A DNA stretch of 64,000 nt from an uncultured Pseudomonadales bacterium. GTDB lineage: Bacteria > Patescibacteriota > Microgenomatia > UBA1400 > PJMF01. A model generated the notes under the pieces. That model had not been told where the DNA came from. It searched no databases and saw only the letters and a list, made by a program, of their open reading frames with translations. The DNA is taken from contig CAZHLX010000001.1 of NCBI GenBank assembly GCA_964533345.1, positions 1,292-65,291 of the forward strand, given 5' to 3'. Made by a program: the position numbers and the translations under genes. How positions within the stretch are numbered: position 1 is the stretch's first letter; the number at the start of each line of letters is the position of its first letter. Shown here in pieces: positions 24,895 through 48,043 of this stretch.

Positions 24895-27800
24895 ATGGAT
24901 AAAAACCTGCCGCCATCACTAGAGTCCAAGCCAAGCAAAAAAAGTTCTTTTTTGATAGCGCTTTTTGTGGTCTGCTTTTTTGTTTTTCCCTCAAGTATTT
25001 CTGCTGAGAGTAGTACATTTACCACTAGATCTGATTGGGATGGAGGGGAGAAGACAAGTCTAGAAACAGAGTCTAAGGAGGGTGACCTCAGGCTGAAATC
25101 AGATGGTTCTTGGGGTGCTAGAAATTGGAAAACTCCTGATCTAACTGTGAGTGTAGGGAGTGCTTTTGCTTCAGATGGGACTGATATCTACTTCTCTAGA
25201 GGTTATGGTGACAATTACTTTGCCAAGTATTCTCCTGCAACTGATCGTTGGACAGAGTTAACCTCGATGCCATATGGCACTTACTATGGTGCTGACATGG
25301 AGGTCTTAGGTGATTACGTCTACATGATCTTTGGTGGTTATCAAACTGCCTTTGCTCGGTACTCAATTACTAATGATTCCTGGGAAGATCTAACTGACAT
25401 GCCAGACCTTGTTTATGAGGGAGGAAGCTTAGTCACAGATGGAACTGACATTTTTGCTTTGCGTGGTCACTATAGTCAGGATTTTTATAAATATGATGTT
25501 AGTGAAGGAACTTGGAGTCCGATGGCTGGCATTACTCGCACTACCAGGCGTGGAGCTGATCTAGTCCACATAAATGGCTATATTTACAGTCCTCGTGGCT
25601 ACAACACCAGCTATTTTTATCGTTATGACATTAGTGCCAACACTTGGTCGCAGATGGCTAACACCCCAGCGAGTATGTATGACGATGTTAACTACACCAC
25701 TGATGGGACAGACATCTATGCTACTCGTGGTAATAACACTACTTCTTTTTACAAATACACAGTTTCTACCAATACTTGGTCTACTTTAGCAACAACTCCA
25801 GCCACAATTCGCTACTCAGGGGCAGTTTATCACTCTGGAGATGGATATATCTATGTTTTCAGAGGTAATGGGCAGTATGAGATGTGGAAGTATGACATTG
25901 CTAATAATGAATTTGTAGGTACGGTTAATACTCCAGCAGGATTATCGACTGGATCTGACATGGTTTATTACAATGGTTATCTTTATACCCCTAGAGGTAC
26001 AAATCAAACCACTTTCTATCGGTACAACATTTCTAATAACTCTTGGGAAACAATGGCAGCAGCCCCAGATAGGTTTAATGATGATACTAAGGGCGTAGTT
26101 GCTGGTTCTTATATTTATTTTTATAGAGGAAGTAATACAACTAGTTTTTGGCGTTATGATCCGGGAGGTAATTCTTGGTCAACAATGGCTGTTCCACCTA
26201 GCGGAGTTCGCTATGGAGGGACGTTAACCTATCCTGGCAGTGGGGATTATATCTATGGAACTAGGGGGTCTATGACTAGAACCTTTTGGCGTTATAGTAT
26301 CTCTGGGGATAGCTGGGATGATGGTGTTGTGGCAGATCTACCCACTGATGCAGAAGCTGGGTATGGAGCTCGTTTGGTTTCTGATGGCACAGATGTTTAC
26401 TATACTGCGGGGCATGGGATTAGTCGGTTATATAAATATGATATTTCTGAAGATACCTGGACAGAATTAGCCAACCCACCATTTTCTCCTTACTTAGGAA
26501 CAGATATTAGTCTTAGAGGTGGTAAGATCTATGCCTTAGCAGGTTGGTACGAGACTGATTTTTATGAATATACAATTGCAACTGATTCTTGGAGAAAATT
26601 AGAATCACTAGCTGGATACTATGCCACTGATATGGGTCCATATGCTGGGGCTTCGATTGAGTATGACCAAAGTTCTTCCTTTTATATTTCTCGAGGTAAT
26701 GGTCGGTTAGATGTTTTAAATTACACTCCAGGCAGTAATGATTATGTGGCCAATGGGACTTGGATATCTCCAGCTCAAGATCTTAGCTATGTTAGCAGTT
26801 GGACTAGTTTGACTAGCTCTTCTACTACTCCAGATGACTCATCAATATCTTTTCAAACCAGAAGCAGTAGTGACAATGTCAGTTGGACTGATTGGCAGGA
26901 TGTCAGTGGAACCACCATTGCTTCTTCGGCTCAGCGATATATTCAAGTCAAGGCAACTTTGACTGCCTCGACGGATCGTGGTGATACGCCTACTTTAGAA
27001 GCTGTTTCTATTAATTATGTTGGAGATGAAACTGATCCAGTAAACCCAGACACCTTTACTGGCTCATCTCAGGAGATAGGTGGAGAGGACTTAACCAGCG
27101 GTGCTTTCTATCGTCATACCCGACCATACTTTACTTGGACTGGTGATAGTGATGGTCAGACAAGTGTGGCTGGATACTATGTTTACTTTGGGACCAATGA
27201 GAGTGCTGATCCTGAGACAGATGGTATCTACCAGACGGATGATGATTATGAACCAAATATCAGTGCTACCGGGACTTATTATCTGATTGTGAAGACTAAG
27301 GATATTGCTGGAAATATTAGTGACTCGGTGACAGGTTTTACTTATAAGTACAATGGTATCTCTCCGGCCCAGTCTTTAACTGTCGATGAAACTAGTGAGT
27401 TTTTAGGAACAACTAGTGACACTAGCGTTAGTGGAGATCAAATTAAGCTAGAGAGTAAAGCTGGTTTTTGGTTACAAGACAGACTGAGCTTAACCCCAGG
27501 CTCAATGCAGTATGGAGCAAAGAATGTGGCTTATGTGGAATCAAGTAATAAGCTCTATGTGTTCAGGGGCAATAACTCCACTACTTTTTATGAATATGAT
27601 ATTACTACTGATACTTGGAGTACTAAGGCTGCCGCTCCAGAGACAGTACGTATGGGTGGAGGAGTGATCGAGGGTCCAGAAGGATATCTCTATGGCATGA
27701 GAGGAAACAATGACACTAGTTTCTGGCGTTATGACATTGAAGATGATGAGTGGAGTGATGAGGATGCAACTGATGCACCATTAACTATTTATTATGGAGG

Positions 27801-30800
27801 TTCATTAGTTTATGACGGCTCACAGTATATCTATGTGATGCGAGGTAATAATGATGATGCTTTTTGGAGATATGATACTCAAAGTGATGAGTGGGAGTCT
27901 TTATCTACAGTAGACTTTGGAGCTACTAATGATGCGGTTAATAACAATGCCTATATCTCTGCAGACTTAGCTATTGATCAAGAGAATCAACTTGTTTATG
28001 CAACTCAGGGCAACTATAGAGATGGATTTTCTGTCTATGATATTAATACAAATGAATGGACTGTCTTAACAGATTTGCCGGCTCTTCCTTACTTGGGTTC
28101 ATCAATTGAGTTTGATGATGTGAGTAACTCGATCTATTTCATGCCTGGTTATTACAAAGATCTTCTCTTTAAGTATGATGTCAGTGGCCAGACTTGGACT
28201 CAAGTTTCATCAGCTCCAGCCACTTTCTATTATGGAGGAAATATTCGTAAAGCAGGAGACAATTTCTATGCTCTCAGAGGTGCAAACTCAACTAGTTTTT
28301 ATAAATATGACATCGCTAAAGATAGTTGGCTTTCACCTACCAGGGGTTTGTTTGGCAATGAGTTTCGTAGTAGCAGTTTGCTAAATGTTTATTATGGAGC
28401 AGATATTGTCAAAGGTGATAGTAATAACTTCTATTTAACTAGAGGTTACTATGCCAACAACTTCGTGAGATGGAACTCCCAAACAGGAGAGTTGACCGAG
28501 TTAAGTAATACACCAGTTGGTGTTTATAACGGCTCCTCTATGGTTTATGACAGTACAAATAACAAGATCTACCTCACGGGAGGAGCCTATGTACAAAAGT
28601 TCTATGTTTATGACATCACGACTGATGTTTGGAGTGAAGAGGTAGATGATCCAATGCCGGCTAATGTAAACTATGGTGCCTCAATGGTCTATGACGGTAG
28701 TCGTTATATTTATATGAATAGAGGAGGTAACGGAAGTAACCTTTATCGCTTTGACACCCAAGGCTCAAGTGGTTCTAAGTGGGATACGATGGCTAACGCC
28801 CCGGCTGGGCTAGGGTATGGGGCAGAGCTAGCCCTCTACAATGGTTACATCTATACCATGAGAGGGCAAAATGTAGCTAATAATCCTTTGTATCGTTATG
28901 ATATCTCTCAAGACAGCTGGGTCAGTAGTTTGTCTCCTTTAAGTATCGATATCTACAATGATGGCTTCATGGCTAATGGAGGAGATGGTTACTTATATGT
29001 TGCTCGAGGTGAAAATGATACTGAGTTTTATCGTTACTCAGTTAGTGGAGACGAGTGGAGCACTTTAGATGAAGTTCCAGCTAGTGTTAATGAGGGAGGA
29101 TCTGGAGAAAGTGATGGGGATAGCAAGGTTTTTGTGATGCCTGGTTCTGGATCGAACACACATGCTGATGGATTGTACACATATGTTGCTCAAACTAATA
29201 ACTCCTCATTTGAAGAGTCTGGAAGTTATGAAACTCAATCTCATGATCTGGTAAGTGTCTATAAGTGGGTGAGTTTGGCAATCGATTATAGCTTGGATAG
29301 CAATGCATCTTTATCAATTCAAACTAGAAGTAGTAGTGACAACTCTGACTGGTCTTCTTGGACAGCAGTTTCAAATGAGAAACTGGATGGCTCAACATAT
29401 TACTATCAAATTAATTCTCCAGAAGCCAGATACTTACAAGTAAAATTAAATTTTGCTTCTGCAGATGGAGTTCGTTCAGCAGCAATGAATTCTTATACGA
29501 TTAATTACTTCCAAGATACTTCAGTTCCAACAAACCCAAGCAACGATGGTTTGTCAGCTTATAGCGATGATGGTCAGAGTGATGCGATTGTTTCTAACAC
29601 CTGGTACGCTCACTCAGCTCCATACTTTGACTGGCCAGATGCTGAGGAAACCAATGGTGCTTCTGATGGGACAAGTCAATCTGGTGTAGCAGGGTACTAT
29701 GTTTACTTTGGCACAGATGAAGAAGTTGATCCTGAGCTGGGCGGAGCTTATCAACTTACTAGTGACTACACAGCTAGTGGGCTGACTACCGATACTACTT
29801 ACTATTTACGTATTAAGACTCGAGATGATGCTGGCAATGTTTCTAGTGAAACCTGGTCACCTTTTATTTATAAGTATGATTCTCAAGGTCCCAGTAGCAT
29901 TGAGAATTTAGTCTCAGATCCAGCTGGTTATACCTCTACAAACAGTTTTGATTTCAGCTGGGATGAGGCGAGTAGTAGTGGTGCGATTGTGACAGGCTAT
30001 TGTTATAAAACTGGGGCCACAGAAGGTGACTATGCAGCTGATCAATGTATTACTGAGAACAGCATTGAAGCAGTCCCTGCCTATCAGGCTGGTGCCAATA
30101 CTTTTTATGTTCGATCAAAAGATCAAGCTAGTAACTATAGTGAATACAGTACTGTCTCTTACTTCTTTGCTGATATTGAGAATGCTCCAGCCCCACCGAT
30201 GAACTTAACAGTTACTCCAGAAGTAAGTACTGAAAACTCATTTGCTTTTGATTGGGATCCGCCAGCTGAAGGAACATTTTATGGCTCAGCTTCAAATCTC
30301 TCTTATTACTACAGCATTAATGCTTTACCTACAGAAAGTAGTACTACTACCACTAGCTTAACTGAGTTGAAAGCTGGGGCTTTTGCCACTCTACCAGGGG
30401 AAAACATGTTCTATCTCTGTACTATGGATGAAGCGGGAAATATCAATTATGGCGATTATGCTTCAGTTGCATTTACTGCCAATACCACCGCTCCAGGAAT
30501 TCCGCTTAATATTGATATTGCTGATGTGTCAGTTAAATCTACTGAGTCATGGAAATTGGCTATCTCTTGGGAAGAGCCAACTCAAGCTGGAGCAGGAGTA
30601 TCAAGTTATAAGATTTATCGATCAACTGATAATGAAAGTTTTGAATTGGCGGCGACTAGTGGAGGTATCTCTTATGTTGACGTTAATTTAGATCAAGAGA
30701 TGTACTACTACAAGGTTAAGGCTTGTGATAACACTAATAACTGTGGTGAGTTTTCTGACATAGTTAATTATCTTCCTGACGGAAAATATACTGTGGCTGC

Positions 30801-32022
30801 ACCACTTGTTTCTGAGCCAGCAGTTTCAAACATCACTACCAAGAAGGCAACTGTGATTTGGTCCACTAGTCGTACTTGTGATTCCAAACTTGCCTATGGT
30901 CCTGGCTCTGGTGATTACTTTGATGAAGAGGTATCTAACTCTGAGCATGTAACAAATCACGAGTTAACCATGTCAAATCTTTCTCCAGGTACAACTTATT
31001 ACTTTACTGCTAAGTGGACCGATGAAGATGGTAATACAGGTGAATCAGAGGAGTATTCGTTTACTACAGATCCACCTCCTTCAACAGAAGAACCAGTGGT
31101 GAAAGGAGTTGGTCTAGACTTTGCTTTCTTAGAATTTACTTCAAGAAATGCTGCTAAGGTCAGAATCTATTATGGTGAGTCATCTGCCTTTGGTGGGAGC
31201 AAAGAAATTGTTACTGGGACGGCTGAGGGCACACACACAGTTGAGATAGGTGATCTTAAAGATGGGACTAAGTACTATTACAAGATAAATACTTTTGATA
31301 TCGAAGATGAAGAGTATGAGGGTGAGATCCATTCATTTAAAACTTTGCCTAGACCAAAGATCTCTAAGATAAATGTTCAGCAAGTGAAGGGGACTGCCAA
31401 GCCAACAGTCTTTGTTTCTTGGTATTCCAATACTGAGATCTCTTCGATTGTGACTTACTATCCCACCCATGATGCTCATCGAGCTTTAGATGATGTCAAT
31501 GTAGCCCTTAAGTCTGGTCAGCATCGAGCTATTCTATCTAATTTAGAGCCAGAGACTACTTATAGCATTTTGATTAAGGGAAATGATGTGGCCGGCAATG
31601 AAGCATTGGGAGAAGTAATTCAGATTACTACTTCTGCTGATACTAGGCCGCCTCAAATTACAAATCTCAAGGTTGAAGGAGAGATAATTGGGACTGGTGA
31701 AGAAGCTACTGCTCAGTTAGTTGTCTCTTATAACACTGATGAGCTAACGACTTCTCAGATTGAGTATGGTGAAGGAAGTGGGACTACTTACTCACAAAAA
31801 ACTCAGGAAGATGGAAGCCTATCTACTCATCACTTAGTAGTTATCTCTGAGTTGACTCCTTCAAAGATCTACCACTTACGTGCTCTATCTAAAGATAGTG
31901 CTGGTAACTTAGCTCAATCTGTTGATAAAGTAGTTATAACCCCTAAAGCTACAGAGAGTGCTCTAGATTTGGTAATTACCAATATGTCTTCAGTCTTTGG
32001 TTTCTTAAGGAGAATTGAGTGA
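24895..32022 (+). CDS. Giant (2,375 aa) secreted/surface protein: two arrays of ~12 Kelch-like blades, two beta-sandwich plus FN3-like modules, and ~7 C-terminal FN3-like modules
   Basis: Signal-like SFLIALFVVCFFVFPSSISAES. The blade motif Y..RG....F(Y/W)(R/K)Y(D/S)xxxxxW recurs. FN3-type segments include YKIYRSTDNESF..YYYKVKA and TYYFTAKWTDEDGN. ATG 24895 is preferred over the TTG at 24871 used by the ORF track. Confidence 0.8.
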   Translation: MDKNLPPSLESKPSKKSSFLIALFVVCFFVFPSSISAESSTFTTRSDWDGGEKTSLETESKEGDLRLKSDGSWGARNWKTPDLTVSVGSAFASDGTDIYFSRGYGDNYFAKYSPATDRWTELTSMPYGTYYGADMEVLGDYVYMIFGGYQTAFARYSITNDSWEDLTDMPDLVYEGGSLVTDGTDIFALRGHYSQDFYKYDVSEGTWSPMAGITRTTRRGADLVHINGYIYSPRGYNTSYFYRYDISANTWSQMANTPASMYDDVNYTTDGTDIYATRGNNTTSFYKYTVSTNTWSTLATTPATIRYSGAVYHSGDGYIYVFRGNGQYEMWKYDIANNEFVGTVNTPAGLSTGSDMVYYNGYLYTPRGTNQTTFYRYNISNNSWETMAAAPDRFNDDTKGVVAGSYIYFYRGSNTTSFWRYDPGGNSWSTMAVPPSGVRYGGTLTYPGSGDYIYGTRGSMTRTFWRYSISGDSWDDGVVADLPTDAEAGYGARLVSDGTDVYYTAGHGISRLYKYDISEDTWTELANPPFSPYLGTDISLRGGKIYALAGWYETDFYEYTIATDSWRKLESLAGYYATDMGPYAGASIEYDQSSSFYISRGNGRLDVLNYTPGSNDYVANGTWISPAQDLSYVSSWTSLTSSSTTPDDSSISFQTRSSSDNVSWTDWQDVSGTTIASSAQRYIQVKATLTASTDRGDTPTLEAVSINYVGDETDPVNPDTFTGSSQEIGGEDLTSGAFYRHTRPYFTWTGDSDGQTSVAGYYVYFGTNESADPETDGIYQTDDDYEPNISATGTYYLIVKTKDIAGNISDSVTGFTYKYNGISPAQSLTVDETSEFLGTTSDTSVSGDQIKLESKAGFWLQDRLSLTPGSMQYGAKNVAYVESSNKLYVFRGNNSTTFYEYDITTDTWSTKAAAPETVRMGGGVIEGPEGYLYGMRGNNDTSFWRYDIEDDEWSDEDATDAPLTIYYGGSLVYDGSQYIYVMRGNNDDAFWRYDTQSDEWESLSTVDFGATNDAVNNNAYISADLAIDQENQLVYATQGNYRDGFSVYDINTNEWTVLTDLPALPYLGSSIEFDDVSNSIYFMPGYYKDLLFKYDVSGQTWTQVSSAPATFYYGGNIRKAGDNFYALRGANSTSFYKYDIAKDSWLSPTRGLFGNEFRSSSLLNVYYGADIVKGDSNNFYLTRGYYANNFVRWNSQTGELTELSNTPVGVYNGSSMVYDSTNNKIYLTGGAYVQKFYVYDITTDVWSEEVDDPMPANVNYGASMVYDGSRYIYMNRGGNGSNLYRFDTQGSSGSKWDTMANAPAGLGYGAELALYNGYIYTMRGQNVANNPLYRYDISQDSWVSSLSPLSIDIYNDGFMANGGDGYLYVARGENDTEFYRYSVSGDEWSTLDEVPASVNEGGSGESDGDSKVFVMPGSGSNTHADGLYTYVAQTNNSSFEESGSYETQSHDLVSVYKWVSLAIDYSLDSNASLSIQTRSSSDNSDWSSWTAVSNEKLDGSTYYYQINSPEARYLQVKLNFASADGVRSAAMNSYTINYFQDTSVPTNPSNDGLSAYSDDGQSDAIVSNTWYAHSAPYFDWPDAEETNGASDGTSQSGVAGYYVYFGTDEEVDPELGGAYQLTSDYTASGLTTDTTYYLRIKTRDDAGNVSSETWSPFIYKYDSQGPSSIENLVSDPAGYTSTNSFDFSWDEASSSGAIVTGYCYKTGATEGDYAADQCITENSIEAVPAYQAGANTFYVRSKDQASNYSEYSTVSYFFADIENAPAPPMNLTVTPEVSTENSFAFDWDPPAEGTFYGSASNLSYYYSINALPTESSTTTTSLTELKAGAFATLPGENMFYLCTMDEAGNINYGDYASVAFTANTTAPGIPLNIDIADVSVKSTESWKLAISWEEPTQAGAGVSSYKIYRSTDNESFELAATSGGISYVDVNLDQEMYYYKVKACDNTNNCGEFSDIVNYLPDGKYTVAAPLVSEPAVSNITTKKATVIWSTSRTCDSKLAYGPGSGDYFDEEVSNSEHVTNHELTMSNLSPGTTYYFTAKWTDEDGNTGESEEYSFTTDPPPSTEEPVVKGVGLDFAFLEFTSRNAAKVRIYYGESSAFGGSKEIVTGTAEGTHTVEIGDLKDGTKYYYKINTFDIEDEEYEGEIHSFKTLPRPKISKINVQQVKGTAKPTVFVSWYSNTEISSIVTYYPTHDAHRALDDVNVALKSGQHRAILSNLEPETTYSILIKGNDVAGNEALGEVIQITTSADTRPPQITNLKVEGEIIGTGEEATAQLVVSYNTDELTTSQIEYGEGSGTTYSQKTQEDGSLSTHHLVVISELTPSKIYHLRALSKDSAGNLAQSVDKVVITPKATESALDLVITNMSSVFGFLRRIE

Positions 32023-32420
32023 TGATTAAGTTAAAGTTAAAACTAACCAAGAGACAAGTCATAGTTCAAAGCATTGCCTTAGTGATTGGTCTGATCTGTT
32101 CATTAGTGATCTTTAATTATCAGCAGAATCAGGCTTTAAAGTTTGATGTGACTTGGAACAGTCCTCAGGAGGCAATGATATTTTGGAAGACACCAACTCC
32201 AACCATAGGGTATGTTAAGTATGGGCAGAAGAAATTGTTTTTGGACCAAACTCAAGATCAATTAAGTGGAGAACCAGGTGATATCCACCTAGTCATTCTA
32301 AGTGGTCTTCCGGTTGGGGAAGAAACCTTTATCTCGATCAGAAACAAAGAAGATAGTTTTCTTCGATGGCCAGCAAAAATGAGTATTAATTATGAACAGG
32401 AAGTAGATGAGCAAATCTAA
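32022..32420 (+). CDS. Small single-TM protein with one FN3-like module
   Basis: Its ATG overlaps the giant ORF stop (TGATG, 32020-32024). TM is VIVQSIALVIGLICSLVIF. VTWNSPQEAMIFWKTPTPTIGYVKYG...GDIHLVILSGLPVGEETFISI resembles the C-terminal modules of the giant ORF. Confidence 0.6.
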   Translation: MIKLKLKLTKRQVIVQSIALVIGLICSLVIFNYQQNQALKFDVTWNSPQEAMIFWKTPTPTIGYVKYGQKKLFLDQTQDQLSGEPGDIHLVILSGLPVGEETFISIRNKEDSFLRWPAKMSINYEQEVDEQI

Positions 32421-35400
32421 TAAAAGTACTTCTAGCGTTGTGACTGATATCAAGGATGTACATAAAACATTCTTAGTTGGTGAGCAAGAGATTGAAATTC
32501 TTAAAGGAATAAACTTCCAGGTCTATAAGGGAGACTTTTTAGTTCTATTTGGTCCATCAGGATGTGGGAAAAGCACAGTTCTAAATACCATCTTAGGTCT
32601 TGAACCACCCACAAAAGGAAATGTGAGTTTCCTTGGTAAAGACTTATACAAATATAATGAAGATGAGCGGGCTGTGATCAGAAAAAAAGAGATCGGTATG
32701 GTTTATCAGCAATCAAACTGGATAAAGGCTTTGAATGTGATTGAGAATATTTGTTTTCCTTTGACTCTATCTGGAGTTTCTACTACAGAAGCAGAGAAAA
32801 GAGCCATGGAATTATTAAAAATGGTTGATATGGAACATGCTGCTCTCCAAATTCCAACAGAGTTGTCTTCAGGGCAGCAACAGCGCATTTCACTAACTCG
32901 GGCTCTAATTACAGATCCGGCAGTGATTATTGCTGATGAGCCGACTGGAAACTTAGACTCAAAAGCTGGCACTGAGATTATGAATCTCTTTAAAGAGTTT
33001 AATGATAAGAGTACAACCGTTATCATGGTTACTCATGACTTAGAGTACTTGAGTTATGCTACCCGTTCAGTCTCTATGTTGGATGGTCAGGTGACAGATG
33101 TTTACAAGGCTGGTGACAAAGCATTGAAAAACTTAAGTGTCTCAAAAAAAGTTCATAATGAAATTAAACCTTCAGATAAAAAAGACAAGAAAGAAGAGCC
33201 ATCTAAGGAGTTAGATTCTCAAGAGGGAGGGATAAAGCTCAAGAGAATCAAGAAGACTAAAAAGAAAAAAATGAAAAATAAACTAAATAACCTCTGGCAG
33301 ATAATTAAGGGCTATAAGTTTTCTATTAATGACTTAAAAAAACTTAAAGACAACACCTTGTTCTTCAGTACTTTCTTATTCTTATTGCTAATTACCTTGA
33401 GTATAGAGATTCTTTCCCCTTTGGGAAGGATTAAGTTTATTCAAGAAAAGTTCAAGTCACCTCTTAAAAAATTAGAATCATTTTATGAGAAAGCTGTGGG
33501 GTTCTTTGATACGGCTGAACCAGATACCATTAGCTCGTCAGCTTTGATTACTTTGGCTTTACGTCATTTAAAGGCTAAAAGAACTCGTACCATAATTACG
33601 ATTGGTGGAATGGCCATCGGAATCGGCGCGATTGTGCTACTTCTTTCTTTGGGATATGGATTTCAACGATTAGTTGTTTCAAGGGTAGCTCGTCTTGATG
33701 AGATGAAACAAGCTGATGTGGCTATTGGCCAAGCCTCTTCATTGTCTTTAAATGAATCTGCTTTGAACAGCTTCAAAGAGATTGAGTATGTAGAGCATGT
33801 CTTGCCTTTGGTATCTTTGGTTTCTAAAGTTAGCTTTAACAACTCTGTTTCTGATGTGGTGGCCTATGGGGTGACAAGTGAGTTTTTGAATCAATCAGCG
33901 ATAAATACAATTCACGGAAAGATGTTTGAGAGTAGTGATGACTTAAGTTTGGTAGATCATGATCAACAAGGGATGGTAGCAGGCTACTCTATTGAAGTGA
34001 GAACTGATGCTAAGTTGAAAAAAGAAGTTTATGAAATAAATTACTCTCTAGAACCACTTGTATGGAAGCCAGTCTATCAAGAGCCAAGCCAAGATTCAGA
34101 TATCATTGGCTACACCAAACGTACTGTGGGCGACCAGGAAGCAGTTGAGGTTTGGGGTGATTCTTATCCAGAGGCAGATCCGTCTTTGGCTGGGATTGAT
34201 GCCTATGGAAATCAATATGACCGTTGGGTCAAAAACTCATTCCCAATCTGGGAAAAAGAAAGCTGTGTTGAAGAAGATCCTGATTGTTTTGGAAATGAGT
34301 ATCTTTTATCAAAAGTAGGGACGAACCAACTAGTTACTGATGGATACTTGACTGAAGACAGATTAATTATTGAGAGATTCAGTATTCTTGATAATGGATT
34401 GTCAGAGCCAAGTGAAGGGGCTTTTATTGAGCAAGTTCAGTTTCACTTAGGAGAGAAGTGGGTGCAGACCTATCTTCATCCTAAAAACAGTGAGGTCTTG
34501 TTGGGGCTATTTACCCAATCTGAGAATGGGGGCGATTTAGTTGAGGGTGATTTAGTCTGGGGAGAATCCTATGCAGATGATGAAGGCAGAGGCAACATGG
34601 GACAGAATGAAAATAACCAGTGGTTAGGTTACTGGATTAGGGCGGAGTTGCCACTATGGCGTAAGGTTGACTGCCAAGATTGTGATAACTACTATTTGGT
34701 AGAGAGAGACGAGGCAGAAGAGCAGATTACACGTAGTGTTTATTTCCCAGCTAATTTAGTTGAAGTAGAGAATTTACCAGAATTTAATCAAGGTCAAGTT
34801 CTAGGAGAGGCAACCGGCAGTGCTGAGGTTAATCTAGATGAAATCTTAAAGATGATTGATTCTGAATCAAGTGGATCAGCAGAAGCGAGTGCAACTTCTG
34901 AGCTATTTGCTGAGCTAGGTTGGGTGGAGATTGCCTCTGCGGCTGGGGTAGTTGAGAAAGATCCCACTTCTATTGATCAAGTCCCTTTGACTGATGATGC
35001 CCAGAAGTTAGCGGTAGTTAATCAAGCCATGTTGAGATTGCTGGGGATTGAAGAAGGAAAAGCTGTTGGTGAATCTATTCTTGCTACTTTAGTTTTTGAC
35101 AACTCACTTTTTAGTCAGGAAGAGTATCAGGCAGAGTCAGTAGAAGAAGAGTTTAAGATTATTGGGGTAGTTCCAGGGAATGATACACCCGCTTTTTACT
35201 TCCCCTTTAGTGATCTCAAGGGGACTGGGATTGAGAACTTCACTCAGATGAAAGTAGTTGCTGTAGATAAGGATGATCTTAAAGAAGTTAGGGTTGCTAT
35301 CGAGTCTATGGGGTTCAAGACCTCATCCGTTGTGGATACTGTGGGTAAGATTAATGGATTATTTAACAATATCCGGTTAGTTCTTTTCTTCTTAGGTCTG

Positions 35401-35787
35401 ATCGCGTTAGGGGTAGCAGCTTTGGGAATGTTTAATACTCTGACAGTTTCACTATTGGAAAAAACTAGAGAGGTGGGGTTAATGAAGGCGATGGGAATGA
35501 AATCTGATGAGGTCAAGCGCTTATTCTTAGCAGAGTCTATTGTGATTGGTCTCTCAGGTGGCCTGGCTGGCCTGGCACTGGGTTTTGTTTTAGGAAAACT
35601 AATTAGTGCCAGTCTGTCTACGGTAGCTGTTGCCAAGGGAGTGGGAGTTATTGATGTTGTCTTTATTCCTCCTCACTTAGCAATCTCGATCATAGTTTTG
35701 TCACTAGTAGTGGGGGTATTCACTGGTATCTTCCCGGCAAGGAGAACTACCAAGATTTCAGCATTAAATGCACTTCGTTATGAGTAA
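32407..35787 (+). CDS. Fused ABC ATPase plus MacB/FtsX-type permease (type VII ABC) with a ~560-aa extracytoplasmic domain
   Basis: Walker A GPSGCGKST, Q-loop, signature LSSGQQQRISLTRAL, Walker B IIADEPTGNLD, H-loop VTHD. A Lys-rich linker follows. The MacB-type TM1 context is ALRHLKAKRTRTIITIGGMAIGIGAIV. The C-terminal FtsX three-TM bundle ends ...ALNALRYE. Its start overlaps the preceding ORF by 14 nt. Confidence 0.85.
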   Translation: MSKSNKSTSSVVTDIKDVHKTFLVGEQEIEILKGINFQVYKGDFLVLFGPSGCGKSTVLNTILGLEPPTKGNVSFLGKDLYKYNEDERAVIRKKEIGMVYQQSNWIKALNVIENICFPLTLSGVSTTEAEKRAMELLKMVDMEHAALQIPTELSSGQQQRISLTRALITDPAVIIADEPTGNLDSKAGTEIMNLFKEFNDKSTTVIMVTHDLEYLSYATRSVSMLDGQVTDVYKAGDKALKNLSVSKKVHNEIKPSDKKDKKEEPSKELDSQEGGIKLKRIKKTKKKKMKNKLNNLWQIIKGYKFSINDLKKLKDNTLFFSTFLFLLLITLSIEILSPLGRIKFIQEKFKSPLKKLESFYEKAVGFFDTAEPDTISSSALITLALRHLKAKRTRTIITIGGMAIGIGAIVLLLSLGYGFQRLVVSRVARLDEMKQADVAIGQASSLSLNESALNSFKEIEYVEHVLPLVSLVSKVSFNNSVSDVVAYGVTSEFLNQSAINTIHGKMFESSDDLSLVDHDQQGMVAGYSIEVRTDAKLKKEVYEINYSLEPLVWKPVYQEPSQDSDIIGYTKRTVGDQEAVEVWGDSYPEADPSLAGIDAYGNQYDRWVKNSFPIWEKESCVEEDPDCFGNEYLLSKVGTNQLVTDGYLTEDRLIIERFSILDNGLSEPSEGAFIEQVQFHLGEKWVQTYLHPKNSEVLLGLFTQSENGGDLVEGDLVWGESYADDEGRGNMGQNENNQWLGYWIRAELPLWRKVDCQDCDNYYLVERDEAEEQITRSVYFPANLVEVENLPEFNQGQVLGEATGSAEVNLDEILKMIDSESSGSAEASATSELFAELGWVEIASAAGVVEKDPTSIDQVPLTDDAQKLAVVNQAMLRLLGIEEGKAVGESILATLVFDNSLFSQEEYQAESVEEEFKIIGVVPGNDTPAFYFPFSDLKGTGIENFTQMKVVAVDKDDLKEVRVAIESMGFKTSSVVDTVGKINGLFNNIRLVLFFLGLIALGVAALGMFNTLTVSLLEKTREVGLMKAMGMKSDEVKRLFLAESIVIGLSGGLAGLALGFVLGKLISASLSTVAVAKGVGVIDVVFIPPHLAISIIVLSLVVGVFTGIFPARRTTKISALNALRYE

Positions 35788-41569: not shown

Positions 41570-42280
41570 TTATTTCTCAATCTCTACTTTAACCCCAGGG
41601 CTCATAGTAGCATTGAGAGATAGTTTGTTTACTTTGCCCTTAATGGTAGTGAGTAAGGTTTGGAGATTAGAGACTAGCTCTTTGGTATCCATCTCAGTGT
41701 TACCGATCACAATGTGCATCAAAGGGGCTTTGCGCTCACTCTTGATGGTCATGCTACCTGATTCAAGTTCTTTTTTCTTTGATTTGGGATCCGCGATTAA
41801 AGTGCCTTGTTTTGGATTTGGCATTAAGCCTTTAGGTCCTAAAACCTTGGCTAATTTAGCTAGCTTAGGCATTAAATCTGGAGTAGCAAGTAAGATATCA
41901 AAATCGATTTTACCTGCCTCAACATCTTTAAGAACTTTGTCATCAGCAATGGCGACAGTTATGCTTTTTCCAGTAGAGTGAGGGAACTGGAGGTTGAATC
42001 TCTCTCCCATGAACTTCTCATCTAAGACTACATCGGCCACAATAGTGCCAGCAAATCTGGAGTAAGATAGTTTTTTGACTAACTCAATTGCAGAGAAGGC
42101 GTCGTAAAGACGAGTTTTATCAACTTGAGAGCGAACAGCTTGATATTTCTTACTGCGCAACTTTTTCTTTGGGGTTGGCTTAGCTTTTTTTTCTGTTTGA
42201 GCATCTCCATCGGTAGGTGTTTCAACCACCTTGACCTCGGTTTCGCTCATAGTCATATCGACGTTCTTTTTTTGTCCCAT
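41570..42280 (-). CDS. rplA: Ribosomal protein L1 with a ~40-aa Lys-rich N-terminal extension
   Basis: KKYQAVRSQVDKTRLYD..AIELVKK, GTIVADVVL and GKIDFD are collinear with L1. It follows rplK. Confidence 0.9.
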   Translation of the reverse strand: MGQKKNVDMTMSETEVKVVETPTDGDAQTEKKAKPTPKKKLRSKKYQAVRSQVDKTRLYDAFSAIELVKKLSYSRFAGTIVADVVLDEKFMGERFNLQFPHSTGKSITVAIADDKVLKDVEAGKIDFDILLATPDLMPKLAKLAKVLGPKGLMPNPKQGTLIADPKSKKKELESGSMTIKSERKAPLMHIVIGNTEMDTKELVSNLQTLLTTIKGKVNKLSLNATMSPGVKVEIEK

Positions 42281-42303: not shown

Positions 42304-42732
42304 TTATACGATCTCAACACCCATGCTTTTAGCAGAACCTTCTACGATTCTCATCGCAGCTTCTAGATCCTCGGTGTTTAAATCTGGTAATTTCTTTTCA
42401 GCAATTTCCTTAACTTGATCTTGAGTTATTTTGCCAGCTGTCTCGATACCTGGTTTTTGAGAGCCAGTTTTGAGTTTGATAGCTTGCTTGATCATGGCTG
42501 AGACAGGAGGAAGCTTGAGCTCGAAGGTAAAGCTGCCATCTTGATAGACAGTTAGCTCAGCTGGAATAATTTGACCACGCTTGTCTTGGGTGCGGTCATT
42601 ATATTGTTTGATGAAGTCCATCATGTTGATACCAGCTTGACCTAAGATAGGACCGACGGGAGGAGCTGGAGTAGCACTTCCTGCTGGTAAATTTAACTTG
42701 AGAACTTTTTTAACTTTTTTCTTTTTTGCCAT
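42304..42732 (-). CDS. rplK: Ribosomal protein L11
   Basis: KLNLPAGSATPAPPVGPILGQAGINMMDFIKQYN is the L11 N-terminal signature. Confidence 0.9.
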   Translation of the reverse strand: MAKKKKVKKVLKLNLPAGSATPAPPVGPILGQAGINMMDFIKQYNDRTQDKRGQIIPAELTVYQDGSFTFELKLPPVSAMIKQAIKLKTGSQKPGIETAGKITQDQVKEIAEKKLPDLNTEDLEAAMRIVEGSAKSMGVEIV

Positions 42733-42749: not shown

Positions 42750-43403
42750 TCAGACTTTTTGTACTTGTAAGAAGTCAAGTTCGACTGGTGTCTCTCGGCC
42801 GAAAATGCTGACCAGGACCTCAACCTTACCTTTAGCTTCATCAATAGATTGGACAGTGCCCAGAAATTCATTGAATGGACCATCAGTGATTTTAACGGCT
42901 TCACCTTCAACAAATTCTGCTTTGTAAGAAGGAGCGCCTTGACTAATATACTTCTGAATAGTTTCTACTTCGTGTTTAGGAAGAGGAGTGGGTTTGTTGC
43001 CGATACCGACAAAACCAGTTACGCCTTGAGTAGTACGGACAGCTAACCAAGCGTTATCACTTAACTCCATGAAGACCAACATGTATCCGGGAAAGATCTT
43101 TTCACGAACAGTCTTGCGTTGACCTCTTTTTATTTGAATTTTTTCTTGGGTAGGAATCAAAACTTTAAGGATTTGATGATTAAGGTTGAGGGTGTCTGCT
43201 CTTTGTTTAAGAGTTTCAGCTACTTTTCCCTCATGTCCAGAATAAGTATGGACCACATACCAACGAGCTTTCTTATTTTCTACGTCGGAGATAGTGATGA
43301 TATTGGGGTTATCGACTTGAACTTCCTGAGTTTCAGGTGCTTCTGGTTGAGTTTCCTCAGTTTTATCCACGTTTTCTGGTTGTGTTTGGTTGTTATCTGT
43401 CAT
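42750..43403 (-). CDS. nusG: Transcription termination/antitermination factor NusG with a ~45-aa acidic N-terminal extension
   Basis: ARWYVVHTYSGHEGKV (NGN domain), FPGYMLVFM, and the C-terminal KOW GEAVKITDGPFNEFLGTVQSID. Confidence 0.9.
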   Translation of the reverse strand: MTDNNQTQPENVDKTEETQPEAPETQEVQVDNPNIITISDVENKKARWYVVHTYSGHEGKVAETLKQRADTLNLNHQILKVLIPTQEKIQIKRGQRKTVREKIFPGYMLVFMELSDNAWLAVRTTQGVTGFVGIGNKPTPLPKHEVETIQKYISQGAPSYKAEFVEGEAVKITDGPFNEFLGTVQSIDEAKGKVEVLVSIFGRETPVELDFLQVQKV

Positions 43404-43410
43404 AAGTTTT

Positions 43411-43593
43411 TTATTTAATTAACACCTCAGTCAGTTTTTGGAACATAAAATCCAGGCCTCCAAGATAAACCGCGAGTAAAGTGCTAACAGCAATTACTAA
43501 GATAGTTTTATTAACGGTTTGCTTCCGGGAAGGCCAGCTGACTTTTTTTAGTTCGCGGACGACCTCTTGAAAGTATCCTACTGGGCTGACCAT
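43411..43593 (-). CDS. secE: Preprotein translocase subunit SecE
   Basis: 60 aa. EVVRELKKVSWPSRKQTVNKT is followed by one TM helix. It lies immediately upstream of nusG. Confidence 0.75.
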   Translation of the reverse strand: MVSPVGYFQEVVRELKKVSWPSRKQTVNKTILVIAVSTLLAVYLGGLDFMFQKLTEVLIK

Positions 43594-43660: not shown

Positions 43661-45271
43661 TTATGACTTAGGTGTAGTGACTCCCTTTTCTTTGACGCGT
43701 TCCATCATCGTTGATTGGGGTGGGGTGCTAGGCTTAGTGCTAGTCATGGGAGGTGTTGGTACCCCTGGTTTAGCCATAGTAGTCGGCGGAGTTGGTTCTT
43801 TTTTAAGTTCTTCTAACTTTGCTTGTAACTCACGCTCGTATTTATCAGCTTCTTGATTAATGCTTTGTTGAACCGGAGTGGTTTTTGTTGGCTTATTTTT
43901 ATCACTCAATAACTTTGGAATAACCACCAATAAGAGTAGTAAGCCACCAGCTGCAAGGGCAATAATGGGCAGCAAGTTGATTGGTACTCCAGCTTGATTC
44001 ATTGAGTTTACAATTGCATCTAAGGCAGTTTCTTCCTCATCGTACATCATTGAATCAGCAGATGGAGAAGGGCTAGGCTTATCAATGATTGCTGCTGGAA
44101 CAGTTGAATCTGAGGCCTCATCCTCTTGGCTATCAATATCTCCACCTTTGGGGGCAGTCTCGTCTTTTTCATAGAGTTTAGAGACAGTGCGGGTAGTAGC
44201 TGCAGCGCAAGTAGTACTACTGACGTTGGTAGCTAGGCGACAAGCTCCATAGTAACAGCGGAGATTCGCAGCACAGTCAGCATTAACGCTACAGGCGGTA
44301 TTGCAATCTGCATCGACTCCAGCTTGGATAGTAGAGCTAGGGACTCGACAGTATTCATCATCGGGGTTATCAGCTCGTCGACATTTATTCTCTAAGCATG
44401 AGTACTTATCGTCACACTCATTAGAGTCAGCACAGTAGTGGTTACAGCCAAAATCTAGACCTTGATCAGTCTGTTCCTGACAAGTGGTACTGCTGACGTT
44501 GGTAACCAGACGGCACTGACCGTTATAACAGCGATGGTTGGTTTCACACTCAGCATTACTGCTACAAGAATCATTACAACCTTGAACTACGACTCCGCCT
44601 GTTCCTGGATCATCAGTTGGGTCTGGGCTAGGGCTTGGGTCTGGACTAGCCTCAGGAGTTGGGTCTGGGCTGGGATCAGTATTACTATTGTCATTAACAG
44701 TGTAGTTAATCGCAGCTACGTGAGTTAGTGTATCTTGTGGAGGAACAGTGGCATGGACAATGGATTTTGATTTTTCTCTATCAAAGTTAATCTCAATGTT
44801 GCCTGCACTAGCAGCCTTCATCATTAACTGAAGAACTGTAGTAGGTGAGTTGGCAGAGAATGTTTGTCCGATTTGACTGGGGGTAGCAATCACAGATACT
44901 AAATAACCATCGCTGGTTTGTTCAATATTAGAATAAATATTCTGTAGCCCAGAGCTAGCAGGGACTGAGAGAGTGGGAACTTCGCTCAGGGTATTAGTAA
45001 CGATGTTAAAAACCAACTGAATTCCATCAGTTTGGATTCCTTGAGTATCAGCTTTTATATCAACAGTTGTATCTCCGATCTCTACTGAGGATCCTGAGGT
45101 GGGGGAGCTAGAAACGGTTACTTGGCCGTTATCAACTGAAGCGTCCGATCTTACATCTTGAGATTTTTCCTGAAGTGGTTTTTGTAAAAGGATCAAGCCA
45201 ACGGTTCCTGATATAAGGAGTAGGATAGAGATGATGGTGGCGATGATTGAGGTAGGGCTTTTCTTATTCAT
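43661..45271 (-). CDS. Membrane-anchored surface protein: cohesin-like N-terminal module, PT/PS linker, three Cys-rich modules, C-terminal TM and a Pro/Lys-rich tail
   Basis: The start is set at MNKKSP (45271), after the upstream stop. The candidate cohesin is GQVTVSSSPTSGSSVEIGDTTVDIKADTQGIQTDGIQLVFNI...GNIEINFD. The Cys modules look like CNDSCSSNAECETNHRCYNGQCRL. The TM is LLPIIALAAGGLLLLLVVIP. Confidence 0.55.
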   Translation of the reverse strand: MNKKSPTSIIATIISILLLISGTVGLILLQKPLQEKSQDVRSDASVDNGQVTVSSSPTSGSSVEIGDTTVDIKADTQGIQTDGIQLVFNIVTNTLSEVPTLSVPASSGLQNIYSNIEQTSDGYLVSVIATPSQIGQTFSANSPTTVLQLMMKAASAGNIEINFDREKSKSIVHATVPPQDTLTHVAAINYTVNDNSNTDPSPDPTPEASPDPSPSPDPTDDPGTGGVVVQGCNDSCSSNAECETNHRCYNGQCRLVTNVSSTTCQEQTDQGLDFGCNHYCADSNECDDKYSCLENKCRRADNPDDEYCRVPSSTIQAGVDADCNTACSVNADCAANLRCYYGACRLATNVSSTTCAAATTRTVSKLYEKDETAPKGGDIDSQEDEASDSTVPAAIIDKPSPSPSADSMMYDEEETALDAIVNSMNQAGVPINLLPIIALAAGGLLLLLVVIPKLLSDKNKPTKTTPVQQSINQEADKYERELQAKLEELKKEPTPPTTMAKPGVPTPPMTSTKPSTPPQSTMMERVKEKGVTTPKS

Positions 45272-45284
45272 ATATAACTCCATA

Positions 45285-46820
45285 TTACAGCGAAATATTT
45301 CCGATGAGCAAACTGTAATCACTCAGGTCTACTATGCCGTCACAGTTTAGGTCTGAGACGATAAAATTATTAGTTTTCATAAATTCTGAGACGAGGAGGC
45401 TGTAATCGCTGATGTCGACTGCAGCATCATCATTGATATCAGCAAATACTCCAGATTGGGCAGTGGTAGAGAAGCGGGCTACCCAACCCTCATTTGGTTT
45501 ATTAGGATATATCAGCCTAACAGTATAGTTATATCCTGGTTTATAGTAGGCTTCTCCTCCAGAAGATCCTTCTGGATAGATCTTCATCTTTATTTTTCTA
45601 AGTTGGTCAAGCTCTGGTAAGTTGAATTGTCTGATCTTGACTCTAATTGGGACAGCAGGTCCATTTTCTCCATTGGGCTGGGGGCATGATCTGGATACCA
45701 CTAGGTTGGCATTCTCAGTTGGCATTTCATTGTGATCAGTTTGTTTAGTAAAGGAGATTGCTGAGTTGGTGTCATCAATACCTTTAATCCATGGCACTTG
45801 GAGGAAGAAATCAGCTGCTTTTCTACCCAGTCTGTAGCCAGTTTGTTCGTAATTTTCCCAAAGAGGTTCACTATCTTTATCAATTCGTTTGACAAAGGGG
45901 AAGATGTATTTACGATACTCATCATTGACTGCGATGTTAACTTGACCTTCCTTATGATCAAAGGTATGAGCCGCTACATAGTATGGGCCGGTGGAAGTTG
46001 GGTTAAAACTGAGTCTGGTTCCAGCGGATTTAATCTTCTTCTGGTCTGGACCATAGAGAACAACAGAACCGATATAGCTACCCTTAGTATTAATCTCTGT
46101 TTCCATAAAAAGAATCTCTAGCTCTCTACCCATAACTGAGGGATGGATCATGTAGAACTGTCCATATCCATCTTCAATTGGTAGTACTCTGGGGCTATTG
46201 TTGTTGTAATCTTCATTCAAGCTCAAGATCGAAGGGTTATCCTGCAGAAGAGCGTAGTTAACATTTAGTTGGAACCAAGTGATGCGTGGATCTTGAGGTA
46301 GGGTGTCACCAGATAGAGATATCGGGTCTGTAGAAGTTTGGCAATCAGCTACTGTTTCACCTGGGTTAACACAAAGACCTGAGGCTCCGACAATCATGGG
46401 GCAAGTATCACCCACACACTCTGGTTCTTCATAACGACAGACTAATCCCGGCATACATCTTGAGTATGGAGTTGAGGGAGGAAGACTACTATTACAAGAT
46501 TGGCAGCGTTCAGAGAGTGGGACTGGCCAAGGGCTAGGCGAAACATTTGGTGATGGAGAAACCCAAGGAGATGGAATTGGTGATATAGGTGGAGTAATCG
46601 GTGGTGATGGGACTGGTGAAGGACTTACTGGAGGTGTAATTGGGGCTGCTTTAGGAAAAATATTAGTTTGAGTTTTAATGACTAATAGGCTTAAAGGTAG
46701 GATCAGAACTAAAAAAGATAGAACTCCTAGGGCAATTCTTTGTTGCTTGGTCAGATAATTCCATGCTTTTTGGAATTGGTTGAGTTCTTTTTCAGTGGTA
46801 GGAGCAGTATTTTCAGTCAC
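45285..46820 (-). CDS. Secreted protein with a Pro-rich linker, Cys-rich module, unknown ~330-aa domain and a C-terminal dockerin-like duplicated Ca-binding repeat
   Basis: The C-terminus ADINDDAAVDISDYSLLVSEFMK...SDLNCDGIVDLSDYSLLIGNI matches the duplicated dockerin type-I pattern (D.N.DG.VD..DY.LL). There is an N-terminal TM/signal and a PxSP-rich linker. Confidence 0.6.
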   Translation of the reverse strand: MTENTAPTTEKELNQFQKAWNYLTKQQRIALGVLSFLVLILPLSLLVIKTQTNIFPKAAPITPPVSPSPVPSPPITPPISPIPSPWVSPSPNVSPSPWPVPLSERCQSCNSSLPPSTPYSRCMPGLVCRYEEPECVGDTCPMIVGASGLCVNPGETVADCQTSTDPISLSGDTLPQDPRITWFQLNVNYALLQDNPSILSLNEDYNNNSPRVLPIEDGYGQFYMIHPSVMGRELEILFMETEINTKGSYIGSVVLYGPDQKKIKSAGTRLSFNPTSTGPYYVAAHTFDHKEGQVNIAVNDEYRKYIFPFVKRIDKDSEPLWENYEQTGYRLGRKAADFFLQVPWIKGIDDTNSAISFTKQTDHNEMPTENANLVVSRSCPQPNGENGPAVPIRVKIRQFNLPELDQLRKIKMKIYPEGSSGGEAYYKPGYNYTVRLIYPNKPNEGWVARFSTTAQSGVFADINDDAAVDISDYSLLVSEFMKTNNFIVSDLNCDGIVDLSDYSLLIGNISL

Positions 46821-46846
46821 CTCAAATAGCGTATAGTAAAAAGGAG

Positions 46847-48043
46847 ATGAGTGTCAATCATATTTTCGCTAAAAAAAGCCTGGTTGTTAAACAAATTATT
46901 AAAGTTGTGTTTGTTTTGGGTTTTGTAGGGTTGGTTCTTTCAGTTGGTAGCCTGGAAGCGGGCTATGAAGTAGTTAAGACAGTTTGGTTAAAGTGGTGGA
47001 TGAAGATCCTGGTGGTGGGTTTATGGTGGTTAGCTCTGACTGATCCTCAACAATTAAACATTAAATTTTTTAGTAAAAAAATAAATATTTTATTAGGGTT
47101 ACTATTAATAGTCGTTTTATTGTCATCAGCTTTGGGAGTTAATTGGCAGCAGAGCCTGTGGGGGAACTACTATCGTGGTGATGGGTTGATTACTTGGGCT
47201 CATCTATTAGTGTCTGGTTTATTAGTGAGTTGGTTATTCATCCAAAAAGAATTGAGGAGGTTGTTGCCCCTGGCAGTCGGATTGGCCACATTACTATTAA
47301 TAGGAGGGTTGTTCTTTCAGTTGCCGGTAGATTGGTTGGCAATTGGTTTTGGGAACAGCAATATTGATGCGGGGCTATTAGTGGTAGGTGTTCCTCTTAT
47401 TATGTTTTGGTTGAGAAAGTTTCATTGGAGCCTAAGAGGGATGTTGTTTTTAGCTACCTTGGCTGTTGTTATTCATCTTCAAGCCTGGGGTGGAGTCATT
47501 GGTTTGGGTTTATTTCTGGTCATGAGTTGGTGGTTAAGAGAGAAAAGTCGTCGTCAGTGGGTAGTTGTTTTTCCTCTAGTGGCACTGATTGTGGGAGTAA
47601 TTGGAGTTCTCATATGGAAGCCAATGGATAATAGTAACTTTACCGAATCTAGGTCAAGGTTAATTCATAAGTTGGTTAGAGCAGTGGGTCAGAGGCCTTT
47701 ATTTGGTTGGGGGTGGGCGAATGTGGATGTAGCTTTTGAAAGTATTGATTGGCCTGTATCAGTGGATAATGACATTTATGTAGACAAAGCTCACTCAGAA
47801 TTGCTGGAAATAGCTGTTGTAAGCGGAATTGTGGGATTAACAATTTATTTATTGTTTTTAGGATTGATTTATTTTGAAGTCATTAACTCTAAAAGATTAG
47901 ATGAGAAGTGGGGGAGGACTTTGTTTTTGGTTTGTTTGTTATATTTCTTTCACAGTCAAACCAATGTGGTCTCTATAGTTGAAAGTTTGTTGTTTTGGAT
48001 GAGCTTAGGATTACTCCTGAGATTTGGAGAACTCAAAGGTTGA
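46847..48043 (+). CDS. O-antigen ligase-like (Wzy_C family) polytopic membrane protein
   Basis: About 10 TM helices. A large late loop is followed by DKAHSELLEIAVVSGIVGLTIYL, which resembles the Wzy_C (WaaL/PglL/PilO) signature H-[SN]-x2-L-x5-G-x2-G. Confidence 0.55.
   Translation: MSVNHIFAKKSLVVKQIIKVVFVLGFVGLVLSVGSLEAGYEVVKTVWLKWWMKILVVGLWWLALTDPQQLNIKFFSKKINILLGLLLIVVLLSSALGVNWQQSLWGNYYRGDGLITWAHLLVSGLLVSWLFIQKELRRLLPLAVGLATLLLIGGLFFQLPVDWLAIGFGNSNIDAGLLVVGVPLIMFWLRKFHWSLRGMLFLATLAVVIHLQAWGGVIGLGLFLVMSWWLREKSRRQWVVVFPLVALIVGVIGVLIWKPMDNSNFTESRSRLIHKLVRAVGQRPLFGWGWANVDVAFESIDWPVSVDNDIYVDKAHSELLEIAVVSGIVGLTIYLLFLGLIYFEVINSKRLDEKWGRTLFLVCLLYFFHSQTNVVSIVESLLFWMSLGLLLRFGELKG

Follow-up and report, generated by a model that had tools for sequence, protein, structure and literature searches.

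Introduction

According to Peer et al. (2009, FEMS Microbiol Lett 291:1), as cited in PMC10066038, all three domains of life have non-cellulosomal cohesin-dockerin pairs; the citing paper, on Omnitrophota, interprets dockerins that lack an identified cohesin partner as possible adhesins. Among the Patescibacteria, Southlakia epibionticum (Saccharibacteria) encodes an essential dockerin-domain protein, SEML1_0315 (PMC10633639), for which the authors propose a role in host adhesion or glycan targeting and name no cohesin partner (PMC10633639). In the literature accessible without subscription, our search did not turn up any account of such a partner in Patescibacteria, which is absence of evidence only. 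Here we describe two adjacent genes in a 64-kb stretch of contig CAZHLX010000001.1 (hereafter the window), one for a dockerin-bearing protein (A) and the other for a protein with a cohesin-fold module (B). The two products probably form a non-cellulosomal cohesin-dockerin surface pair of a Patescibacteria (candidate phyla radiation, CPR) cell. Both open reading frames (ORFs) lie on the minus strand, at the coordinates given by an earlier reading of the DNA alone (the original prediction), and coordinates of all features are collected in Table 1.

A dockerin and a cohesin-fold module encoded side by side

The C-terminal module of A can be accepted as a dockerin at the level of the family, the individual protein scoring below threshold. 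It consists of two tandem segments of ~22 residues, each a 12-residue Ca-loop followed by a helix, in the type I arrangement, and both loops carry D or N at positions 1, 3, 5, 9 and 12. In the A family, positions 3, 5, 9 and 12 of loop 1 and positions 1, 5, 9 and 12 of loop 2 are invariant, and position 3 of loop 2 is at least 90% conserved. The majority of the invariant columns of the family, including the Ca-ligand positions, fall in this module, which is the most conserved region of A (74% identity to the window protein vs 42-49% for the central domains). A regular expression for dockerin Ca-loops, run on six-frame ORFs of at least 60 aa, detected only these two sites in the window; the duplication is therefore no chance pattern. 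Together with scans by hidden Markov models (HMMs), this search indicates that the window contains one dockerin. Pfam Dockerin_1 (PF00404) matches 15/15 homologues of A at E<=0.01 (best E 1.7e-7), and the best match of A among the PDB sequences is the Ruminococcus flavefaciens dockerin 5lxv_B (E 3.5e-4), followed by further dockerins including 2jnk. The segment [IL]SDYSLL is common to both repeats (positions 10-16), with YSLL after each loop, and the near identity of the two copies suggests a symmetric, dual mode of binding like that of type I dockerins.

The partner of 5lxv_B in the crystal, the R. flavefaciens ScaC cohesin 5lxv_A, is the top structural match of the module of B (E 1.8e-6). 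In the AlphaFold2 (AF2) model of B, built from a 95-sequence alignment, residues ~50-195 are all-beta with a predicted local distance difference test score (pLDDT) of 95-98, and the five models agree (mean pLDDT 76.4-77.9). A Foldseek search of this model against the PDB yielded 55 matches at E<=1e-3, those at ranks 1-25 all being cohesins; among the 50 matches listed, 46 are cohesins of types I, II or III or non-cellulosomal ones (E 1.8e-6 to 4.8e-4, probability 1.00). These include Clostridium acetobutylicum 6kgd_A (template modelling score, TM-score, by target 0.73), C. thermocellum 1ohz_A, OlpC 4dh2, OlpA 3ul4, C. perfringens 2jh2 (rank 3) and Archaeoglobus fulgidus 2xdh (rank 20). At the level of the predicted fold, the assignment of the module as a cohesin appears to stand. 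The original prediction had proposed both a duplicated Ca-binding repeat of the dockerin type I pattern in A and a cohesin-type beta-sandwich in B, and the respective family matches and structural comparisons agree with both proposals.

Conservation of the gene adjacency in related loci

The B family is represented by 95 sequences in the 90%-identity collection, including the identical protein P0001, and the profile of its module covers 404 clusters at 50% identity, with the module always located near residues 50-210. Domain architectures, called with HMMs built in this analysis, are dominated by a cohesin followed by one detected Cys-module domain (172 of 217 members); the rest comprise a cohesin only (25/217), a cohesin with two (14/217) or three (1/217) Cys-module domains, and a cohesin combined with a dockerin (5/217). 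Each B protein has a single cohesin.

Across the 21 distinct loci (the window and related loci), a dockerin-ended ORF is located directly 5' of the B-type gene in 16, with the identity of B falling to ~31%. Only 6 of these 16 dockerin neighbours contain the central domain of A itself, and the alternative cargo found beside B homologues includes a right-handed beta-helix (L004) and CARDB (L020). Because the adjacency persists in 16/21 loci although the cargo changes, it is the dockerin itself that is conserved beside B. When ten of the neighbours were scanned with Pfam, the dockerin scored above the cut-off in five loci (23.2-41.0 bits). Furthermore, proteins with both a B-type cohesin and a C-terminal dockerin are encoded in L012 (8535-9959) and L018 (7100-8128), and P0163, P0164, P0190, P0197 and P0218 are five more of this kind; in P0163 and P0164, thrombospondin type 3 Ca-binding repeats separate the two modules. 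A dockerin, rather than a cargo, conserved next to a cohesin gene is the pattern that binding partners, or the members of a small scaffoldin network, would be predicted to show.

The nearest relatives of the window are labelled Candidatus Pacebacteria, Paceibacterota or Patescibacteria group (NCBI phylum Minisyncoccota, which is CPR). Several contigs with B-secE-nusG-rplK bear the record titles Vitreimonas sp., Limisphaerales or Pseudomonadales (L016, DASPLQ010000012.1; L020, JBILGT010000001.1; L006, L013, L014, L019 and L021). Such titles on loci of the patescibacterial type are probably binning or labelling errors.

Weighing the alternatives

Several observations weigh against a cohesin-dockerin pairing of A and B. 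The match of A (residues 461-509) to Dockerin_1 is 18.7 bits (E 0.002), and the Pfam gathering cut-off is 22.9 bits; taken literally, the protein from the window thus fails, by 4 bits, the HMM threshold on which the original prediction had staked its claim, whereas its family matches the model. The dockerin of A is also modelled with low confidence (pLDDT 45-58). In the case of B, recognition of a cohesin from sequence fails throughout: Pfam Cohesin (PF00963), the check suggested by the original prediction, gives nothing at E<=10 for B and nothing at E<=1 for 10 relatives, none of the 95 homologues carries a precomputed Pfam domain, NCBIfam makes no cohesin assignment, and searches of the PDB sequences with phmmer and with the family profile retrieve no cohesin. 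Alignment of the B profile with hhalign, to one CipA cohesin and to a shallow profile of 6 CipA sequences, gives a probability of 0.3-0.8% (the CipA query is 96% identical to the real sequence, and its homologue search returned 10 close relatives). Convergence of the fold might explain the match of B, and so might a cohesin-like module that binds a different ligand. The structural similarity to cohesins is moderate (TM-score by target 0.56-0.73, root mean square deviation, rmsd, 3.6-5 A). Within B, the identity of Cys modules 1 and 3 (70-71%), which together with the dockerin of A are the best-conserved parts of the pair, exceeds that of the cohesin module (40%), so that the principal function of B may lie in the Cys modules. 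In 5 of the 21 loci, B is encoded without an adjoining dockerin gene. Finally, A has an N-terminal hydrophobic helix of its own and, if this is not cleaved, B is not needed for the retention of A.

In light of these points, the most serious competing explanation, albeit an unlikely one, is that A and B are neighbours but not partners. The beta-sandwich of B would then be a cohesin-like adhesin or ligand-binding module, directed for example at the host surface or at the cell's own wall, the dockerin of A would be an orphan Ca-binding module or have another ligand, and the adjacency would reflect co-regulation of surface proteins. Dockerins with no identified cohesin partner have been reported outside cellulosomes (PMC10066038). 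The absence of sequence homology between B and cohesins and the five loci that lack a dockerin neighbour fit this explanation, and so do the non-cohesin folds among the structural matches of B, namely, the CLIPPER adhesin domain and BslA. However, those matches are overwhelmingly true cohesins, and the gene adjacency is retained in most loci despite the changing cargo. Proteins that join a B-type module to a dockerin, as in scaffoldin adaptors, exist, and the most conserved part of A is precisely its dockerin.

We consider it still less probable that B is chiefly an envelope or secretion factor tied to the Sec machinery, with a role in export or wall organization, for which the capture of dockerins would be secondary. 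The B gene is followed by secE-nusG in 19 of the 21 distinct loci and has no dockerin neighbour in 5, B has a conserved C-terminal cytoplasmic motif, and the Cys modules and the motif that follows the N-terminal helix outrank the cohesin in conservation. Nevertheless, the domains of B match no known Sec-associated or wall-biogenesis family in Pfam, NCBIfam or the PDB sequences, the gene order might reflect just strong constitutive expression, and the cohesin fold and the dockerin neighbours are left unexplained. A prediction artefact, in which AlphaFold would have modelled some generic beta-rich segment of B unreliably and the dockerin of A would be a chance EF-hand-like pattern, is very improbable: the cohesin assignment does come from a predicted structure, and the dockerin of A does fall below the Pfam cut-off, but the module of B has a high pLDDT with a 95-sequence alignment, the five models of B agree, its module family is large, and the dockerin is duplicated, with invariant Ca-ligand positions, and found in all 15 homologues. 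Pairing of A and B through a dockerin and a cohesin is thus the interpretation that we prefer.

Organization of the two proteins

The layout of B was derived from family alignments and the AF2 model (95 sequences), and the start codon was fixed by the family alignment. The ~150-aa all-beta module, the C-terminal transmembrane helix and the Pro/Lys-rich tail that had been noticed in the original prediction were all found, by sequence as well as in the model. The short motif that follows the N-terminal helix is SQDVRSDAS in B (family consensus SQDxRxQAS); two of its residues, R41 and A44, do not vary at all among 49 aligned sequences, and their conservation is still at least 90% when 95 are aligned. 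In the Cys-rich region, the Cys columns are invariant or nearly so (consensus CNxxCxxNxxCxxNxRCYxGxCRLxTNxxSxxC), and pLDDT is mostly 84-97, with a drop to ~63 where a spacer separates modules 1 and 2. The sole Pfam hint for these modules is a sub-threshold match to DUF7107 (E 0.067); they may do more than space the cohesin from the membrane. A low-complexity stretch leads from the Cys modules to the transmembrane helix. The predicted cytoplasmic tail includes a conserved helix, YExxLQxKIxxLK (residues 473-490; 43825-43878), and a conserved C-terminal motif, SSMxERVKxKGIxPP (residues 519-536; 43664-43717), which suggest an intracellular partner of B. SLH and Gram-positive anchor (LPXTG) families have no Pfam or NCBIfam match in B.

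An N-terminal signature, [ST]QD[LIV]RxxA[SA], located 5-10 residues after a hydrophobic helix, is found almost only in ORFs with a B-type cohesin or a dockerin (L002 6182-7819, L012 8535-9959, L013 9914-10891, L014 4243-4770, L018 5486-11020, L019 2643-8779, L020 6686-8878). In the window, it is present in B only; A lacks a motif of this type and has KTQTNIFPKAA in its place. The signature, which no NCBIfam model matches, may serve the system as a lineage-specific signal for sorting or processing. Cleavage by signal peptidase I after QA of SQDxRxQAS looks unlikely, as ~15 residues separate this site from the hydrophobic core and no small residue is conserved at position -3.

Protein A, for which an identical public protein (P0096) exists and whose start position is the same in its homologues according to the alignment, begins with a basic, Lys/Arg-containing segment, after which come a hydrophobic helix, a Pro/Ser linker and an 8-Cys module; ~290 beta residues and the C-terminal two-loop module complete it. 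Some homologues lack the 8-Cys module, and in others it is duplicated. Although the original prediction described the Cys-rich modules of the two proteins as related, no relationship is detectable (BLASTP E=1.6), and the HMM of the B modules matches neither A nor any of its homologues. The AF2 model of A has a mean pLDDT of 66.9, with 80-94 at residues ~210-300 and lower values elsewhere in the cargo. No Pfam match is detected in the cargo region. Foldseek matches for the cargo are PPC/collagen-binding domains (5sv5, TM-score by target 0.74), CUB, neuropilin and SIDT ectodomains, as well as sandwich domains of enzymes of glycoside hydrolase family 2 (GH2), in their non-catalytic parts only. 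Because only non-catalytic beta-sandwich domains match, the modelled cargo looks like a binding module rather than an enzyme. A catalytic cargo was considered and rejected, given that the GH2 matches cover only non-catalytic sandwiches with an rmsd of ~16 A over multi-domain alignments. Pfam detects no glycoside hydrolase, other catalytic domain or carbohydrate-binding module (CBM) in A or B, consistent with the non-cellulosomal role envisaged in the original prediction, in which no glycoside hydrolase was evident.

Table 1. Features of the A-B locus; positions are those of the window.
Feature	Residues	Position	Strand	Basis
Gene A: 511-aa dockerin-bearing surface protein		45285-46820	-	ORF; GTG start; stop 45285-45287
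A: hydrophobic helix, signal anchor or long signal peptide	29-48	46677-46736	-	sequence; modelled helix; family-conserved
A: Pro/Ser-rich linker	58-103	46512-46649	-	sequence; pLDDT <50
A: 8-Cys module	104-160	46341-46511	-	family alignment
A: cargo, two beta-sandwich domains of binding-module type	165-452	45465-46328	-	AF2 model and Foldseek
A: dockerin module	459-511	45288-45446	-	Pfam Dockerin_1; PDB dockerin match; family conservation
A: Ca-loop 1, DINDDAAVDISD	461-472	45405-45440	-	
A: Ca-loop 2, DLNCDGIVDLSD	490-501	45318-45353	-	
GGAG ribosome-binding site, 6 nt 5' of the B ATG, within the A-B gap		45278-45281	-	sequence read directly
Gene B: 536-aa membrane-anchored single-cohesin protein		43661-45271	-	ORF; ATG 45271-45269; stop 43661-43663
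B: N-terminal hydrophobic helix	8-29	45185-45250	-	sequence; model helix 6-35
B: post-helix motif	37-45	45137-45163	-	family alignments
B: cohesin-fold module	48-196	44684-45130	-	pLDDT 95-98; Foldseek
B: Pro/Ser/Asp-rich linker	197-231	44579-44683	-	sequence; low pLDDT
B: three 33-residue 6-Cys modules	232-355 (232-264, 276-308, 323-355)	44207-44578	-	Cys columns
B: C-terminal transmembrane helix	431-456	43904-43981	-	sequence; model helix 431-456
B: predicted cytoplasmic tail, Pro/Lys-rich	457-536	43664-43903	-	alignment consensus; model
secE, 67 nt 3' of B		43411-43593	-	Pfam SecE E 2.4e-19
nusG		42750-43403	-	Pfam NusG and KOW; synteny
rplK, after nusG		42304-42732	-	synteny
rplA, after rplK		41570-42280	-	synteny

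Genomic context

The intergenic gap between A and B is 13 nt, essentially the 14 nt given in the original prediction. No terminator-like site was found from A through to nusG, which makes co-transcription plausible, and A and B are probably transcribed together with secE-nusG-rplK-rplA. Its location 5' of secE-nusG-rplKA suggests that the pair is expressed constitutively. An origin from a mobile element or phage was also considered and rejected because this gene context is conserved.

On the upstream side, A is divergent from a gene for a Wzy_C (O-antigen ligase-like) multi-pass membrane protein (46847-48043, plus strand), the start codons of the two genes being ~26 nt apart (46820-46847), and an NTP-transferase gene lies beyond it. 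A promoter-like match on the strand of A (46862-46890) is located inside the coding start of the Wzy_C gene. Elsewhere in the window, a 2383-aa ORF (24871-32022, plus strand) with many Kelch repeats, one bacterial immunoglobulin-like domain and several fibronectin type III domains, but no dockerin, is probably a giant surface protein. Another ORF (32407-35787, plus strand) encodes a 1126-aa single-polypeptide fusion of an ATP-binding cassette (ABC) ATPase, a MacB-type periplasmic core domain and an FtsX permease.

Proposed function and implications

These features can be combined in a model in which B would be the anchor, held in the membrane by its C-terminal transmembrane helix and perhaps also by the N-terminal helix if the latter is uncleaved. 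Outside the cell, B would expose a stalk made up of the three disulfide-rich modules together with the Pro/Ser linker and the single cohesin-fold module. Protein A would be exported with its two beta-sandwich domains of the binding type, and its C-terminal dockerin would dock, in a Ca-dependent manner, into the cohesin of B, which would keep A on the surface and display it. Cleavage of B at SQDxRxQAS would make the cohesin the distal tip of a C-terminally anchored stalk, and otherwise B would be tethered at both ends. Through co-transcription with secE-nusG-rplK-rplA, the pair would be a constitutive part of the envelope, and its most plausible role would be to present adhesive or glycan-binding modules with which the cell attaches to its host or to glycans. 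We infer the direct A-B binding, the topology and the adhesive role from these features jointly. In relatives, the same anchor would receive other dockerin-tagged cargo (beta-helix, CARDB) and cohesin-plus-dockerin adaptors; because relatives combine the same anchor with such cargo and adaptors, this would most plausibly be a modular display system with changeable cargo on one anchor.

A broader proposal, which we put forward tentatively and hold to be somewhat more doubtful than credible, is that of a lineage-wide display system of Patescibacteria located 5' of secE-nusG-rplKA. Such a system would combine a transmembrane anchor with three conserved disulfide modules and one cohesin of a cryptic family absent from domain databases, swappable dockerin cargo and adaptors, and its own N-terminal sorting or processing signal (a hydrophobic helix and SQDxRxQAS) common to the cohesin and dockerin proteins. 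It would be the principal means by which these host-dependent cells mount and exchange their host-attachment proteins, and would hint at a missing partner for the dockerin proteins of other Patescibacteria, including the essential one.

A large part of bacterial diversity is made up of Patescibacteria, which for the most part live attached to other cells, and how their surface proteins are mounted is largely unknown. Southlakia, the one genetically tractable member, has an essential dockerin protein, and the A-B locus offers a concrete candidate for the missing type of cohesin partner. The B family, with its 404 clusters, is annotated as hypothetical throughout and is paired with dockerin proteins of varying cargo. 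If the binding is true, cohesin-dockerin assembly extends to a housekeeping envelope role in ultrasmall bacteria, the dockerin tag becomes a handle for identifying host-attachment proteins, and the pair provides a compact orthogonal cohesin-dockerin module for protein engineering.

The type of the pair is already known, but a B-type cohesin family that is invisible to sequence models appears to be new. The same seems to apply to anchoring by a transmembrane helix in combination with Cys-rich modules and a cytoplasmic tail, to the fixed place 5' of secE-nusG in a CPR lineage, and to an N-terminal motif that is common to both partner classes.

Comparison with known systems

The A-B pair resembles the non-cellulosomal pairs in that a single cohesin and a single dockerin are borne by non-cellulase proteins. 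The solved examples of this class are the cohesin-like 2jh2 and 2vo8 and dockerin-like 2jnk/2ozn modules of Clostridium perfringens, and the Archaeoglobus fulgidus cohesin 2xdh. In contrast to these, the cohesin of the A-B pair is unrecognizable by sequence and is part of a membrane protein that also has Cys-rich modules and a tail in the cytoplasm, and the pair is fixed 5' of secE-nusG across a CPR lineage. A and B lack the hallmarks of a cellulosome, that is, dockerins on carbohydrate-active enzymes and a multi-cohesin scaffoldin with a CBM. The dockerin of A is similar to type I dockerins with internal symmetry (C. thermocellum Xyn10B, 1ohz/2ccl; C. cellulolyticum, 2vn5), each with two Ca-loops that are followed by a helix, whereas in its recognition residues it departs from the Ser-Thr or Ala-Leu pairs of clostridial dockerins.

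With the anchoring scaffoldins (C. thermocellum SdbA and OlpA/OlpB/OlpC; R. flavefaciens ScaE and ScaC), B would share a cell-bound cohesin for dockerin-tagged proteins, and relatives of B include adaptors with both a cohesin and a dockerin. Classical scaffoldins are anchored by SLH repeats or a sortase LPXTG motif. The anchor of B is, instead, a transmembrane helix, and B has one cohesin, no CBM and no glycoside hydrolase cargo, in an ultrasmall, episymbiont-type host. By analogy, B would thus act as an anchoring scaffoldin outside the SLH- and sortase-anchored families. Finally, Southlakia SEML1_0315, which we compare by its description, is likewise a dockerin-bearing envelope protein of a Patescibacterium, although of another class, and the display role proposed here for A and B would fit the published proposal for that protein.

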